From contig CAXXOU010000001.1 in assembly GCA_963677495.2 (NCBI GenBank), positions 384,001 through 448,000 on the forward strand: a stretch of 64,000 nucleotides of DNA, in the 5' to 3' direction. The stretch is from Candidatus Cloacimonadales bacterium. GTDB lineage: Bacteria > Cloacimonadota > Cloacimonadia > Cloacimonadales > JAFGVF01. The position numbers are program-made. Positions 12,001-24,000 of this stretch are shown here, piece by piece (the stretch's first letter is position 1; the number at the start of each line of letters is the position of its first letter).

Positions 12001-15000
12001 ATGGAACAGTATGTCCCTACTAAAGTATGGGATTTTAGTGGTGGTTGCTTCGATGGTGTCGGAATCATAGTGCTCGATATCGAGGAGATGACAGGCAAGA
12101 AGAGCTTACCAACTTAAGCTTGCACCGCAACGAACGATCATGCTAGCATGATTGTAAGTGTGGGGCGAAGCGAAATCAGGTGATTGGCTTATAAATGTAA
12201 CCCGACCACCCCTGGTCGGACTAAAAACATGTCGATCATGGGTGATCGACTTACCAAAGTAACTCGACTGTCTCGGTCCAGTAAATAAACGACCCGGAGT
12301 GTCGTTATACTAAATAACCTGGAGGTATTTATGCAAACCATAAAAGATATATTAAGAAAACTCAATGCACTTGCCCCAACCGCAATTGCATACAGTTGGG
12401 ATAATGTCGGGCTTATGCTCGGAAGTCCTGATTGGGAAGTTAAGAAAATTCTGTTAACCCTTGATGTTACAGAAAACGCTATTAATAAAGCTATAGAGAT
12501 TGGTGCTGACCTGATTCTGGCTCATCATCCGTTTATCTTCCGTCCTGTGAAAAGTATTACCGACCCTCGTCATATTAAGCTGATTGAGAAAAGAATTGGA
12601 GTGATTTCCATTCATACTAACCTGGACTTAGTTCATGGTGGAGTGAATACAGCATTAGCTGAAATCCTGGGTTTATCAGATTGGGAACCTCTCTCTACTG
12701 AATCCGGAACCGAATGGCTGAAGTTCGAAATGTCTATTCCTGAAACTCATCTAGCTCAGATGCTAAAAGCTCTTGCTGAAGCTGGTGCAGGCAAAGTAGG
12801 GGCTTATGATATGTGTTCAACTACATGGGATTCAGAAGTTCGATTCCGACCACAAGCAAACAGTAATCCATTTAGTGGAGAAACAGGAATAGTGGCTCAG
12901 GATAAAGTGAAGAGACTCTCATTCATGGCTGAATCATTCCACAGATTTGCTATTGAAACTACTATCAAACAAGTTCATCCATATGAAGAACCCGGATATA
13001 CAATAACTAAGGTTGAGAACCCCAGTCCTAGTTATAAGTTAGGTCTAATTGGTAAACTGAAGACTCCCCTTGAGATGTCGGAGTTTGCTGAGTTTGTGAA
13101 ATCAAAACTTCAAGCTCCATCTGTGAAGCTTTGGCCTGCTAATAACAGTGACGGAAGTATGATTAAGACTGTGGCAATATGTGGCGGTAGTGGCACATCT
13201 GTTCTGGGGAAAGCGATAGGCAAAGCAGATATTCTTGTAACTGCAGACCTTACGTATCACACAATTCTAGACAGCCCAATTCCTTTAATTGATGCAGGAC
13301 ACCTTTACACCGAGTACCCTGTTCTCAAGAATCTTGAATCTTATCTTGCAGATGATTCTCTCAAGTTTGAATATCTTCCTCTTGATGAACACGAATACAG
13401 TGGCTTAGTAACAATTTAATTTTGGATTATATTAAGAGTCCATGACATCCATTGTTATTATATTCTTAAATAAAGAGGCTTAATCTTGAATCTACTCTTC
13501 ATTATTTCAATTCTAAAGATTTAGTTTGACTAATGTTTCTCAGCTATGAAAAAGGGAGAATGGATAATAAGAAATGGCACAATGACCCCGAGATAGCTAA
13601 ATATCTGACACTTATCGGTCAAACCGGATTGATGATGGCGGGTTGTATAGTCGTTTCAGTGCTAATAGGAATCTGGTTAGATCACCGGAGTGGTAGCTCT
13701 CCATTATTCTTGGCAATATTTTGTATTGTTGGAGTGCTATCAGGATTCTTTGGTGTTTACAAAATGATAGCAAGATTCTATAATAGCGATAGAGCATCGG
13801 AAAAGGAAGAAAAACAGTCTTGACAACTAAGCGATTTGTTATAGAGGTAGTAGTCATTATTTGCTTGACAAATATACCTGCGCTCCTATTGATACCGACG
13901 AATTTCCAGGGAGCTTACAGCTGGTTTCTTGGATCATTCGGAAGCGCCATAAACTTTGTCTGGATGTACTTGGCAGCAGCCAGTGCGTTCGGTCCGATAG
14001 CAAAAAGTACTCAGGTGAAAACAGTGAAAGCGTTTTATTTTCGTTATCTGTTCTTGATAGCGTTATCGCTTATTTCTGTGAAACTCCTGAATGCTGACAT
14101 CTTAATATTTGGTCTTGGGCTCTTAGCAGCTCAAGGTGTTATCTTTGCAAGAAGCTTGATAGAATCTATCATCAAAGATAGGTTCGCAAAGAAATAGCGG
14201 AGTAAATATGTCGAAAAAGAAAAAGGGATTACTAAGGTTATTTGTAATCTTCTTTGTCATCGAATTTGGTCTCTCATTCTTTCTAACCAGTACAATTCAT
14301 ATTGGAAAGGACCCTGAAACCGGCAAGTTTGGAATCAGAGTCGAGAAAGAGGAAGAATCACTTCAAGAAGAGATCATAGCCGATACTCAACCGGATACAT
14401 ACTTCAGAGAATCTGAAATGATGCAGGCAAAAGTTGAACATGGCTCCGAGGAGCAGTTAACTAATGCTGAAATCATCAAACTGTATCAGGATGAGCATAA
14501 TGAAGAAGCTTTACACGAAATAGCTGAATTCCTGCCCTACAAAAGTATTGGGGTCTATTTAACCTTTCACAAAATCTTCGGTGATGCAAGTACAATTAAC
14601 AGTTTCAAACTTCTCAGAATGTTACTTATTGTAGACATCATCTTTATCGTTCTCGCGATCTCAATTCGCAAGGGTGTAAAGTTCTATCCCGGAAAACTTC
14701 AGATTGTGGGTGAATCCTTCTATTCAGGGGCCGAGGGGATGGTTAAAGACACGCTCGGAAAAGAGAACGTTCATTTCACACCTTACCTTCTAACGCTATT
14801 CCTGTTTATCTGGTTCTGTAACCTGATTGGTATTATACCTATTCCGGGCTTTATAGAACCTACCAGAAACTTGAATGTGCCGATGGGACTTGGTCTTGCA
14901 GCTCTTTCAGTTGTACATTTCATGTCTATTAAGAAGAAAGGATTGTGGGCATATATGAAGGAGTATGGAGAGCCAATGGTATTCCTCGCTCCATTAAACA

Positions 15001-21000: not shown

Positions 21001-24000
21001 CTTAAAGAGACAATTGCCGGATTTAAAGCAATCCTTGATGGTGATTGTGATGATTGGCCTGAGCAGGCTTTCCTCCTTGTAGGAAACCTTGAGCAGGCAG
21101 AAAAGAAAGCCAATGAGTTAAGAAACAATGGTTAATATTGAAATTATCATGCCCGACCGCATAAAACTTGAGAGAAAGTGCGATCATCTTATTGTTCCCG
21201 GTATTGACGGTGATTTAGGTATATATCAGGATCATACACCTGTCATGACTCAGCTTCGCCCCGGTGTCCTTCATATCGTATATGATGGTAAAGAGGAGAA
21301 AATGGCTATACATGATGGCTTCGTAACAGTTGAGAACAATAATGTTGTGATTCTCTCTGAGAGAGTTGAATCGGAAGTGGAGATTGATTTCAAAAGAGCT
21401 GAAGATGCTAAAAACAGAGCTGAACAAAGGCTCAAAGATCAACCAAAGGAACTTGACTTCCGACGTGCGGAGTTAGCCCTGCGTCGAGCCCTTACAAGGC
21501 TTTCAATCAAAAACTAAGTTGTAATCCAAGAAAAACCAATCTAAACTAAGACCGCTGCAAAGCGGTCTTTTATGTTTACCCGGATCTTTACCTCATGCGA
21601 TTAATTGTAGAAATCATAGCGCTACTCCTTAGTCTCACCCATGTAACTTTATTTTTTCCACATCCATATCTCATCCTTTGAGATACTTGCAATCAAAGGA
21701 TTATGCACTTATTGGTAATTGTTATAATTTTAAACGTAGTTAGTTAACAAAAAGCCCCCGCTTTCGCAGGGGCTATTATTTATAAAGAATGAACTACTTC
21801 ATGAGTATCATTTTCTTAGTTTTTGTATATGTACCAGACTGCATCTTGTAGAAATAAACACCACTTGATACCTGGCTACCGTTATTATCTTCGCCATTCC
21901 ATACGATTGTATGTCTACCTGCTTTATAATCACCTTCAACTATACGATTAACTCTTTGTCCTTTAATGTTATAAACATCAATAGTAACAGCAGAGTTAGC
22001 CTTAAGGTCGAAGCTAATTGTTGTTTCAGGATTGAATGGGTTTGGATAGTTTCCTCTTAATGCAGTAGTCTCAGGAATAATGATTTGATCATCATCACCA
22101 AGAGTAGCACCGTCATTCATAACCATGATATCATCAATCATCATGAAGAATGTCTGACTTGAAACGCAATGGAAACCAACTCTAATTAGTTCATTAGCAT
22201 ATGCATCTAAGTTGTAATGATATGAATCCCAGTTAAGAGGTAACTCAAGTGGAGTGTCACCGGAAATGATAGTGAAATCACTTGGATCTGTTCCGCCCAT
22301 AGAGATACCGACTTCAAGTAGTTCAGGACCAAACTGAGTTGTATATGAACGTGCTTTGAAATCAAGATATGCTTCAACATCTGTTAACTGAATCCTAGGA
22401 GTTATCATCCAGTCATCATTAGAACCAGAATCAGCAGCAAAACATGCACCGTACTTATCTCCACTGAACGCATCAGCGAATTGAAGTGGTGGTGTAGTAC
22501 TGTTTGGATTGAAGATAACAAAAGACATTGGGTCGTTCTCACCAGGGAAGTCGATACCATTATTGAAACCATAAGTATCTTCGCCGTCTAAGTCTGCAAG
22601 AGTCCAATACATCATTTCAGTTGCAAAGTCCGCATAGCTTTCGAATGTTTCTGCAATGATAGGAGGGTCAACACCGATATAAGTTACCATAATAGAATCA
22701 CAAGGTGCTGATTCACCTGCAGGAGCAGAGTAAAGAGCAGTAATCTTGTATTCATAGGTCTGGTCAACTACAGGTTCAGTATCAAGATAGAATTGAGCCT
22801 GAACAGGTTCTGTGTTAATAACAACATCATCACGGTAAACATTATAGCCTTCAAGCTGTCTTGTAGCAGGAACTGGAGCGTCCCAAGCTAAATCAATACC
22901 TTGATATGTAATATTAGCAGTTAAGTTTGAAGCTGGGTCGAAACCGGATGGTTCTACAGGGTTATCTGTAGAGATCCAAAGTGAATAATCACCTGTATCC
23001 CAACGTGTAGTTGGAAGAGTATGATTCACTGTTTCTTCTTCGATAGGTTCTGATTTATTGAGCTTAGAGCTGAAAGTATTTTCTTGAGAAGCAAGAGTAT
23101 TTGAACTACTTCTCATACTTCTAGTTGCAGGAGCATTATCACTTCTTGCAATTCTAAGATAATAGAAACCTGATGCTGCTTCGTCAGGAACATCATATAC
23201 TAAATGAGGGCTTACACCATCAGTCCAGCTGTCATCATCAAATGCAATTGATGCGAACTCATCAAAAGTAAGATCTACATCATCATAAGGACCATAGAGG
23301 AATGCTGACAAGTCAGTTGAAGAACCTTCTTCAAGCTCAGTATGGATATCAAGTTGAGCAGGACCGGTTTGCCAGAATACATACCAGTCAACATCAGTTA
23401 CAGGTTCGATTATCTCAAGATAACCTTCGACATTTTCAATATAGAGAGCAAACTCATGTGCTTCATCTGAAGTATCATTTGAATCAGGAACATATCCATA
23501 ACCATGCATTGTAATCTCATAAGTATTACGGTCGTCCGGAATATAGTTATCAATGATAGTTAGCATTGCAGTTTTGTGTCCAACAGATGTAGGTGTAAAC
23601 ATTATATCCATTGTAGCTTCTGTGCCACCTGCAATACTAAGTGGATATGTATTGTTATCATTCATTGTGAATTGATCTGCATTGTCTCCACTAAGAACCG
23701 GTTGATCTGTAACAACGATTGTTGTGTCAGTGAAGTTACGCATTCTAAGTTCAAAGATATCAGAGTTGTTTCCTACAGTTACAACATCAAATTCGATATC
23801 AACAGGTAAGAATAATCCGTTGCCACCATCTGAGAGGTCACCAGGATTAAGAGCATAACAGAGAGCCATAGGATCGTTAAGAGGTCCACCTACTCCATTG
23901 TTGCGATATTGATGTCCAACTGTACCATCAGCATTCTCAATACCAATACAAGCATCACCAAGAATACTTGATGTACCTGTGTCTCCATTAGGGTTCACAT

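Follow-up and report, generated by a model that had tools for sequence, protein, structure and literature searches.

A three-hairpin c subunit with a Gln middle hairpin, probably a low-copy rotor member, in the only F1Fo ATP synthase operon of a Cloacimonadales bacterium

How small an energy supply an anaerobe can survive on is set by the number of ions moved per ATP, a number normally read directly from the count of c subunits in the rotor ring. In the literature we found one bacterial F-type case, Acetobacterium woodii with C. aceticum, in which a hairpin without an ion site bends this rule, and the accessible passages of a recent preprint on rotary ATPase evolution (bioRxiv 10.64898/2026.10.01.756066) still name the A. 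woodii case only. The ATP synthase operon of a Candidatus Cloacimonadales bacterium encodes, beside a normal c subunit, a protein of three fused c hairpins (hereafter c3), and raises the question of what such a protein does in a rotor and how many ion sites it brings.

The window, meaning the whole 64,000-nucleotide stretch of DNA that was analysed, holds eleven co-directional plus-strand ORFs at 13533..21517, found by ORF calling and identified via Pfam (Table 1). The survey's finding had counted ten operon genes; there are eleven, because the operon has an AtpZ-like as well as an AtpI-like ORF. The c3 gene sits between those of subunit a and the single-hairpin c, before b. Subunit a carries an N-terminal extension of about 135 aa upstream of its PF00119 domain, with no Pfam match in residues 1-137, and the gene 5' of c3 encodes 296-423 aa in 27 of 29 Cloacimonadota loci. 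A promoter consensus scan gave 18 sites against 22.8 expected; among sequencing runs containing the stretch we found four of DNA type, from one study, and none of RNA.

Table 1. Features of the ATP synthase operon, with positions in the window.
Feature	Position	Strand	Evidence
AtpZ-like small membrane protein, 96 aa, opens operon	13533..13823	+	PF09527 ATPase_gene1, 56.2 bits
AtpI-like protein, 125 aa, TTG start	13820..14197	+	PF03899 ATP-synt_I, 27.4 bits (cut-off 25.1)
Subunit a, 337 aa	14208..15221	+	PF00119 at residues 138-330
c3, three-hairpin c subunit, 249 aa	15234..15983	+	Three PF00137 stretches, 135.7 bits
c3 hairpin 1, aa 1-82	15234..15479	+	E31 in helix 1, E64 in helix 2 (codon 15423-15425); VTETGAIF
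c3 hairpin 2, aa 83-168	15480..15737	+	S113 in helix 1, Q146 replaces carboxylate (codon 15669-15671); LAQTDAIF
c3 hairpin 3, aa 169-249 plus stop	15738..15983	+	I200 in helix 1, E233 in helix 2 (codon 15930-15932); VSESTAIY
c, single-hairpin Na+-type c subunit, 79 aa	16024..16263	+	PF00137, 65 bits; E29, V60, E62, S63, T64, Y67
Subunit b	16311..16787	+	PF00430, 89.6 bits
Subunit delta	16790..17323	+	PF00213, 100.8 bits
Subunit alpha	17339..18844	+	PF00006, PF00306, PF02874
Subunit gamma	18865..19719	+	PF00231, 318 bits
Subunit beta	19738..21135	+	PF00006, PF02874
Subunit epsilon	21128..21517	+	PF02823, PF00401
Terminator-like stem-loop just after epsilon, readable on both strands	21548..21569	.	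Consensus scan only

This F-type operon, to which c3 belongs, is the only rotary ATPase of the genome. In the 99.46%-complete genome, PF00137 matched four hairpins only (the three of c3 and that of c), all in the F operon, PF00006 matched alpha, beta and Rho, and V-type subunit I (PF01496, V_ATPase_I) gave no match, in agreement with the survey's finding of a single F-type operon and no V/A-type enzyme. The Na+ economy of the genome also includes two Rnf/Nqr-type clusters, one membrane pyrophosphatase and two OAD_beta genes. Elsewhere in the phylum, one Cloacimonadota family has a V-type ATPase in place of the F-type.

By profile score c3 is an F-type subunit, reaching 150.5 bits with the F0F1 subunit C model NF009998 (cut-off 116), while the best V-type K model, NF004913, gave 61.9 bits, below its cut-off of 211. 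Pfam and alignment reproduced the three ATP-synt_C hairpins and the motifs reported earlier for the 249-aa ORF, and the alignment bore out the full two-carboxylate Na+ set of the neighbouring 79-aa c. The ion-carrying carboxylate is not present in every helix 2, as hairpins 1 to 3 have E64, Q146 and E233, within VTETGAIF, LAQTDAIF and VSESTAIY, against VSESTGIY in c; at the helix-1 ligand position of the hairpin alignment the residues are E, S and I, against E in c. The AlphaFold2 model (37 sequences) has three helical hairpins with pLDDT 93.3 and pTM 0.87, the same fold as in the earlier model. Searching for homologues of c3 returned 459 matches, the best 120 being 115 proteins of 242-257 aa and five of 404-405 aa, and these counts and the site tallies coincided with those given before. 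In the alignment of c3 with the 115 three-hairpin relatives (n=116, among the matches listed), the site residue was E in 72, Q in 38 and G in 6 for hairpin 1, Q in 113 and E in 3 for hairpin 2, and E in 99 and Q in 17 for hairpin 3; in a cross-species c3 alignment Q146 was invariant. The relatives lose one, two or all three carboxylates, in the patterns E-Q-E, Q-Q-E, E-Q-Q and Q-Q-Q, and among the matches listed the loss of E64 is accompanied by that of E31 (S|AAQTAF types) and the carboxylate is wholly absent in 7 of 116 proteins. We also considered D148 as a relocated carboxylate; this residue is D in only 17 of 116 proteins among the matches listed and S in 91, and therefore not a family feature.

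How many sites these residues could form was counted by the published geometry. According to the accessible passages on solved Na+ rings (PMC2359735, PMC3692424), a site is made of Glu65 and Gln/Glu32 of one hairpin and is completed by Val63-O, Ser66, Thr67 and Tyr70 from the preceding hairpin, so that each c3 hairpin has a carboxylate side and offers a Val-O/Ser/Thr/Tyr side to the next. On this basis E31 and E64 of hairpin 1 would form a canonical two-carboxylate site, completed by whichever unit precedes. The next site would be dead, combining S113 and Q146 with the T65-G66-F69 side of hairpin 1, which has decayed (among the matches listed, residue 69 is F in 115 of 116 and residue 66 is G or A in 115 of 116). 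The last would be reduced, with E233 lacking both the helix-1 ligand, since position 200 is I (in 109 of 116 among the matches listed), and the Tyr, where F151 of hairpin 2 stands (F in 116 of 116 among the matches listed). Hairpin 3 would in turn use its intact face to complete the site of the next c, and this face is kept among the matches listed (V231 in 113, S234 in 116, T235 in 113 and Y238 in 114 of 116). The conservation pattern (n=116, among the matches listed) fits the published geometry. The earlier statement that hairpins 1 and 3 keep the Glu holds for hairpin 1 and for the presence of E233; the site of hairpin 3, lacking the helix-1 ligand and the Tyr, is only putative, and sequence alone does not tell whether E233 would hold Na+, H+ or no ion. 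A neutral Gln may mimic a loaded site and could pass subunit a and the lipid. Each c3 would then add three hairpins and only one or two working sites, which would lower the Na+ per ATP, and the rotor probably moves fewer Na+ per turn than its size suggests.

We asked where such a protein would sit, and the evidence points to a ring shared with c. Probably the only Na+ F1Fo ATP synthase of the organism has a mixed ring, made mostly of single-hairpin c, in which c3 takes part in low copy. The data show the gene with its operon context, its fold, conservation and residue pattern, and purifying selection on it; that the protein is in the ring, in how many copies, whether it binds ions and in which direction the enzyme works is what we infer. 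The c gene adjoins c3 in 29 of 30 loci and, in another set, in 32 of 34. Among 34 species of 13 families we found three carboxylate-free c3 proteins, each beside a c with full site, two of them in closed genomes of 1.5-1.6 Mb; the genomes carrying these three gave no further PF00137 match beyond c3 and c. That 7 of 116 c3 proteins among the matches listed are carboxylate-free, and yet the adjacent, highly conserved c is kept, makes a mixed ring the likely design. The c subunit is the more constrained of the two, with a 10-residue stretch invariant in 22 of 22 species aligned and an identity to the window's protein of 82-99% across species, against 41-94% for c3. In 10 of 10 related pairs, which are not independent, the dS of c, resting on 79 codons, was 2-5 times below that of a, c3 and b; this is a hint that fits many c and few c3 per ring, though causes other than expression level are possible. 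A model of the c3 and c complex scored 0.62, against 0.00 for the best control (116 of 157 solved complexes attain that mark, as do 2 of 215 mismatched pairs), but this score may echo memory of solved c rings and the self-made alignments, and so shows likeness rather than binding. Three runs agreed in at least 98% of contacts with partner pLDDT of at least 86, and the modelled c docks on hairpin 3, with c3 residues 231-239 touching c residues 18-38 and 58-62, which makes hairpin 3 the predicted docking face for c. Three ion-blind hairpins in succession, as the carboxylate-free relatives have them, do not sit easily with ATP synthesis driven by ions; the ring model may therefore need another direction of work in those lineages.

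Other explanations were weighed against the same data. If c3 were a non-rotor part, such as a membrane assembly factor, a c-ring scaffold, a plug or a regulator, the carboxylate-free versions that persist in the sole operon of closed genomes would be easier to understand, as they indicate that ion carriage is not what selection keeps; moreover, Na+ c rings are known to have assembly factors of the AtpI type, and the reference list of PMC9171764 cites a requirement for the native AtpI. We nevertheless regard this role as unlikely, considering that AtpZ-like and AtpI-like proteins are already in the operon, that no part of the motif is better conserved, even where E233 is Gln, than the neighbour-completing face of hairpin 3, as would be required of a unit adjoining another in a ring, and that the closest solved relative, the A. 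woodii c1, is a ring member as far as the passages of the preprint go (bioRxiv 10.64898/2026.10.01.756066). A ring of c3 alone, for example four copies giving 12 hairpins, could alternate with a c-only ring, as all c-type packing features are present and one c3 could use its hairpin-3 face to complete the site of hairpin 1 in another. This seems very unlikely to us: the 7 of 116 relatives without carboxylate (among the matches listed) would make no working ring alone, c is encoded beside c3 in nearly every locus of the two sets above, and c3 is without the synonymous-site constraint seen in c.

It is scarcely credible that c3 represents a paralogue in decay, or three c genes joined by an error of assembly or gene calling. 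Ion-binding residues are indeed being lost in several lineages, but the c3 frame is open in 127 of 232 Cloacimonadota genomes, nearly all misses falling in one family, and the gene is under purifying selection, with a dN/dS of 0.043 against the same-genus genome G113 and values near 0.04 in every hairpin (0.035, 0.038 and 0.048 from hairpin 1 to 3; 0.031 for c). Q146 itself is nearly invariant (113 of 116 among the matches listed).

Keeping to c3 as a minor partner of c in a mixed ring, we looked at the relation of its hairpins. Residues 15-165 align in one piece to residues 33-181 of the A. woodii c1 structure 4bem_J (domain 89.6 bits; whole protein 124.2 bits, E 4.4e-35), which is also the top Foldseek match of the c3 model (E 3.4e-7, TMt 0.81). 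Hairpin 1 aligns to c1 hairpin 1 and hairpin 2 to its Gln hairpin, and the best PDB match of hairpin 3 is A. woodii c2 (55 bits). By descent c3 is probably an A. woodii c1-like module of two hairpins, carboxylate then Gln, plus a C-terminal third hairpin of the single-c kind. The hairpin tree (75 columns) supported the N-terminal group at 51% bootstrap and 94% SH-aLRT. Hairpin 3 groups with single-hairpin c, weakly supported at 13/82 in the careful 75-column tree; with the neighbouring c it was joined in a quick tree (SH-aLRT 94), stood apart in the careful one, and was not rejected by the AU test (p 0.107). A triplication of the phylum's own c, with all Cloacimonadota hairpins in one group, was rejected by the AU test (lnL 86.8 lower, p 0.0007), the tested group having been named after the first tree was seen and shared selection on Gln hairpins being able to mimic kinship.

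The closest known system is A. woodii, whose ring holds nine single hairpins and one c1, with 10 Na+ sites. In the accessible passages of PMC7911925, c1 has the motifs Q....ET then Q....QT in an operon of the same order as here. As there, the c3 gene stands between atpB and a single-hairpin atpE in the F1Fo operon, hairpin 1 has a carboxylate and hairpin 2 a Gln, the partner c has the full Na+ motif, and hairpin 1 has Phe where an ordinary c has Tyr; a multi-hairpin c gene directly upstream of a Na+-type c is shared with C. aceticum as well. Unlike the c1 of both species (two hairpins, four helices, about 18 kDa), c3 has three hairpins and 249 aa, the third being of single-c type and bearing a carboxylate that is only partly equipped, and hairpin 1 carries the two-carboxylate set E31 and E64 instead of a Gln in helix 1. 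The earlier claim of fewer ion sites per hairpin than in any described F-type ring hinges on the ring stoichiometry, which is known for A. woodii, and need not hold: a single c3 among 11 hairpins, if its hairpin-3 site works, would leave 10/11, equal to A. woodii.

The second-best structural match was Enterococcus hirae NtpK (PDB 2BL2), one of the V/A-type double-hairpin proteolipids, in which every two hairpins bring one Na+ site and the ligands come from different hairpins in the geometry used above, according to passages of PMC2359735. In contrast to this type, c3 scores as F-type rather than V-type K, in a genome without V-type subunit I. Archaeal A1AO proteolipids of the Methanocaldococcus jannaschii type have three fused hairpins and fewer carboxylates than hairpins. 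The passages available of PMC9171764 give archaeal c subunits 1, 2, 3 or 13 hairpins, with reduced numbers of ion-translocating residues. The archaeal proteins belong to an A-type enzyme, whereas c3 comes from a bacterial operon of F type that also encodes a single-hairpin c. In the literature we found no description of an F-type c subunit of three or more hairpins, nor of the four- to six-hairpin ones next to a normal c described below, though other work may have listed such genes before.

Four- to six-hairpin F-type c subunits, mostly of Thermodesulfobacteriota, share with c3 the order a, multi-hairpin c, c, b, and their N-terminal and Gln hairpins group with those of c3. They differ by more Gln hairpins, typically E-Q-Q-Q-E or E-Q-Q-Q-Q, and by a subunit a of ordinary length (223-272 aa), unlike the c3 loci. 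The five-hairpin forms had been assigned to Cloacimonadota; that assignment was wrong, as none of the 80 loci retained bears a Cloacimonadota label and 60 bear that of Thermodesulfobacteriota. Likewise, the survey's finding had spoken of a trait of the phylum, and c3 is conserved across most of Cloacimonadota, but it extends into a multi-phylum family of 2- to 15-hairpin proteins.

In c3 the device of the site-less hairpin is met again, now in a protein of three hairpins that most of a phylum has conserved. A bolder and rather unlikely extension would be that killing sites in a fused rotor subunit acts as an evolutionary gear-shift, with c3 in several copies, for example a (c3+c)x3 ring of 12 hairpins matching the symmetry of F1. 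If true, at most 3 Na+ would be moved per ATP here, and 2 or 1 in Q-Q-E and Q-Q-Q lineages, and the sole "ATP synthase" of Q-Q-Q lineages would be a dedicated ATP-driven Na+ pump. The graded loss of sites in c3, with four- to six-hairpin relatives in sulfate reducers, makes it testable how many blank positions an ion-driven rotor tolerates and whether such enzymes still make ATP or only pump. Some of these relatives are in culture, five-hairpin c loci being present in the strains Desulfocarbo indianensis SCBM and Desulfatitalea alkaliphila M08but.

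Eleven closely packed ORFs were found in the ORF listing of the window, and Pfam ordered them as AtpZ-like, AtpI, a, a three-hairpin c subunit (c3), a single-hairpin Na+-type c subunit (c), b, delta, alpha, gamma, beta and epsilon. c3 contains three ATP-synt_C stretches (Pfam) and is an F-type c by NCBIfam (NF009998, 150.5 bits with a cut-off of 116), scoring far under the cut-offs of V-type K models. In the whole genome (four contigs, 99.46% complete), PF00137 matched only the three hairpins of c3 and that of c, four in all, PF00006 matched alpha, beta and one protein that is Rho by Pfam, and the profile search for V_ATPase_I gave zero matches. 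Therefore, the atp operon is the sole rotary ATPase found in this genome.

Coordinates of the atp region and of two related loci
Feature	Sequence	Positions	Strand	Remark
NIF3/DUF34 family protein	window	12331-13419	+	immediately 5' of atp operon
atp operon	window	13533-21517	+	
N-terminal extension of subunit a	window	14208-14618	+	about 135 residues, without Pfam match
c3	window	15234-15983	+	249 aa
codon D148 of c3	window	15675-15677	+	hairpin-2 position matching Thr67
c	window	16024-16263	+	79 aa
terminator-like stem-loop	window	21548-21569		3' of epsilon; consensus scan only
1899-aa secreted-type protein	window	21794-27493	-	MAM, ASH and Ig-like domains; C-terminal Por_Secre_tail/FlgD_ig sorting domain (type IX secretion cargo); convergent with atp operon
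V-type subunit I next to 172-aa double-hairpin K subunit	L119, genome G023	12-1935	+	Cloacimonadota family f3
five-hairpin c (405 aa, E-Q-Q-Q-E), then normal c	L038, Desulfocarbo indianensis SCBM	7001-8564	+	cultured sulfate reducer

The hairpins of c3 and c share 33-49% pairwise identity, hairpin 3 being the nearest to c (49%). In the hairpin alignment, the helix-1 ligand position is occupied by E31, S113 and I200 in c3 hairpins 1, 2 and 3 and by E29 in c, while the helix-2 motifs read VTETGAIF, LAQTDAIF and VSESTAIY in c3 and VSESTGIY in c. An AlphaFold2 model of c3 (37 sequences) also showed three hairpins, with pLDDT 93.3 and pTM 0.87. The homologue search reproduced the numbers of the survey's finding, namely 459 matches, the best 120 comprising 115 proteins with lengths of 242-257 aa and five with 404-405 aa, and the site residues that it had counted were upheld in our alignment of c3 with those 115 relatives (n=116). 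At the carboxylate position, hairpin 1 carries E in 72 proteins, Q in 38 and G in 6, hairpin 2 carries Q in 113 and E in 3, and hairpin 3 carries E in 99 and Q in 17. The commonest pattern per protein is E-Q-E (59), followed by Q-Q-E (34), E-Q-Q (10) and Q-Q-Q (4), with E-E-E, G-Q-E and G-Q-Q in 3 proteins each; 7 of the 116 have zero carboxylates. We also noticed that position 148 is an Asp in this and a few further genera (Asp in 17/116, Ser in 91/116), which would place a second acidic group beside E233 of hairpin 3. Compared with G113, a genome of the same genus, dN/dS was 0.035, 0.038 and 0.048 for c3 hairpins 1, 2 and 3 and 0.031 for c; purifying selection acts on all three hairpins.

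In solved Na+ rings, Glu65 and Gln/Glu32 are reported to come from one subunit and Val63-O and Ser66 from its neighbour, on which Tyr70 and Thr67 also sit (PMC3692424; PMC2359735). In E. hirae NtpK, the first ligand set (Glu139/Gln110) lies on hairpin 2, whereas Leu61/Thr64/Gln65/Tyr68, which make up the other set, lie on hairpin 1 (PMC2359735); in a fused protein it is therefore the preceding hairpin that supplies the completing side of a site. The mechanism that we infer for c3 from its residues follows this arrangement. The hairpin-1 site (E31, E64) would be completed by the unit preceding c3 and would then match a c-c site in its ligands, and the hairpin-2 site (S113 and Q146, with V62, T65, G66 and F69 from hairpin 1) would be dead. 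The hairpin-3 site would have E233 but an Ile at the helix-1 position, and would be completed by L144, T147, D148 and F151 of hairpin 2, without a Tyr; V231, S234, T235 and Y238 of hairpin 3 would then serve the site of the next unit. Conservation in the same 116 proteins (relatives from the best 120 of 459 matches) follows this geometry: S234 is present in all 116 and Y238 in 114, with T235 and V231 at 113 each, including where E233 is replaced by Gln; likewise F69 is found in 115 and F151 in all 116, and E31 is lost together with E64 wherever E64 is lost.

In a complex model of c3 with c, c docked on hairpin 3, where c3 residues 231-239 contact residues 18-38 and 58-62 of c. The model scored 0.62 and the best control 0.00; scores this high were obtained for 116/157 solved complexes and 2/215 mismatched pairs. 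The runs shared at least 98% of contacts and partner pLDDT was at least 86. The model agrees with the geometry, as a likeness and not as binding; since c rings have already been solved, its score may reflect memory of them, and the analysis's own alignments served as input. Assuming for scale 11 hairpins, the size of solved Na+ F-type rings, a ring with one c3 would have 9 canonical sites, 1 reduced and 1 dead (about 3.0-3.3 Na+ per ATP), and one with two c3 would have 7 canonical and 2 reduced sites (2.3-3.0 Na+ per ATP).

Considering the mixed ring, c adjoins c3 in 29/30 Cloacimonadota loci, the exception being at a contig end, and in 32/34 species spanning 13 families, both exceptions being close to contig ends; the full [E/Q]-V-E-S-T-Y set is present in all 32 of those adjoining c proteins. 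In 3 of the 34 species c3 is carboxylate-free, and two of these three are closed genomes of 1.5-1.6 Mb in which PF00137 matches c3 and c alone. With such a c3, a ring made of it alone could not work. In 10/10 related pairs, c showed 2-5 times less synonymous divergence than a, c3 or b (dS of the window against G113: c 0.37, a 1.00, c3 1.31, b 0.82); the comparison draws on the 79 codons of c and on pairs that are themselves interrelated. This hints at the kind of codon constraint expected of a subunit present in many copies, c3 in turn resembling one- or two-copy subunits.

Among PDB sequences, c3 residues 15-165 (hairpins 1 and 2) gave one colinear alignment with residues 33-181 of 4bem_J, the two-hairpin c1 of the Acetobacterium woodii hybrid rotor (domain 89.6 bits; whole protein 124.2 bits, E 4.4e-35), in which E64 faces the c1 carboxylate and Q146 the c1 Gln. 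The top PDB match of hairpin 3 was the single-hairpin c2 of A. woodii (55 bits). Foldseek also ranked 4bem_J first for the c3 model (E 3.4e-7, TMt 0.81, TMq 0.60), with E. hirae NtpK behind, and this structure search gave no solved chain spanning all three hairpins. For A. woodii and C. aceticum, c1 is reported to read 'Q....ET' then 'Q....QT', in the operon order atpI-a-c1-c2 (PMC7911925). In hairpin trees, whose support is modest given 75 columns only, N-terminal hairpins of multi-hairpin proteins clustered, Gln middle hairpins clustered, and hairpin 3 grouped with single-hairpin c. An AU test rejected one clade of all Cloacimonadota hairpins (p 0.0007) and did not reject one clade of N-terminal hairpins (p 0.48). 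On our reading, c3 combines a c1-like module with one further hairpin of the c kind, rather than having arisen by local triplication.

c3 is a real, conserved gene that varies the hybrid-rotor principle of A. woodii in an apparently undescribed way. Our literature search, whose reach did not extend to a dedicated survey of hybrid-rotor distribution, returned no description of an F-type c with three or more hairpins; where a bioRxiv preprint of October 2026 treats duplicated c subunits, they are far rarer in F- than A-ATPases and A. woodii is the sole named case (10.64898/2026.10.01.756066). As anticipated by the survey, c3 is a trait of the phylum and not of this genome alone, being found in 127/232 Cloacimonadota species genomes, or 126/231 without the window's own. 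Most misses (97/105) fall in one large family, f3, with a match in 1/98 genomes, against 125/133 for the remaining families together. Family f3 has a V-type enzyme in place of the F-type c, with one double-hairpin proteolipid gene in 40/41 sampled genomes and subunit I beside K at the one locus examined (L119). Thus, V-type K in f3 and c3 elsewhere would give Cloacimonadota two kinds of rotor in which hairpins outnumber sites. By eye, helices 2 (T-Q..Y) and 4 (E) of K at L119 seem to show a Na+ pattern like that of NtpK.

The genome encodes two Rnf/Nqr-type clusters, one membrane pyrophosphatase and two Na+-decarboxylase beta subunits, which makes a sodium cycle plausible in this organism; such a cycle was inferred for Cloacimonadota in PMC8542988. 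Gene content would fit either a mainly ATP-making or a mainly pumping enzyme. We would expect an ATP-driven pump to tolerate several blank hairpins in a row, and an ion-driven motor to pay for them.

The five-hairpin forms that the survey listed are not from Cloacimonadota: of 80 loci related to the five-hairpin query P0015, none was labelled Cloacimonadota, and they are labelled Thermodesulfobacteriota (60), Pseudomonadota (6) and Myxococcota (4) or have no label (10), Desulfocarbo indianensis SCBM and Desulfatitalea alkaliphila M08but being among them. Their gene order is identical to that of the Cloacimonadota operon (a, multi-hairpin c, c, b). The gene 5' of c3 encodes 296-423 aa in 27/29 Cloacimonadota loci, whereas the corresponding gene encodes 223-272 aa in 71/75 loci of the five-hairpin group, most of them from Thermodesulfobacteriota, so that the extension of subunit a tracks the phylum and not the multi-hairpin c. 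The D. indianensis cluster is Fo only (atpI, a, c5, c, b, b'). A single carboxylate (E-Q-Q-Q-Q) is present in 2/5 five-hairpin proteins among the matches listed. Across 1.84 billion cluster representatives, 314 proteins reached E <= 1e-10, with lengths that fit 2, 3, 4, 5, 7, 13 and 15 hairpins.
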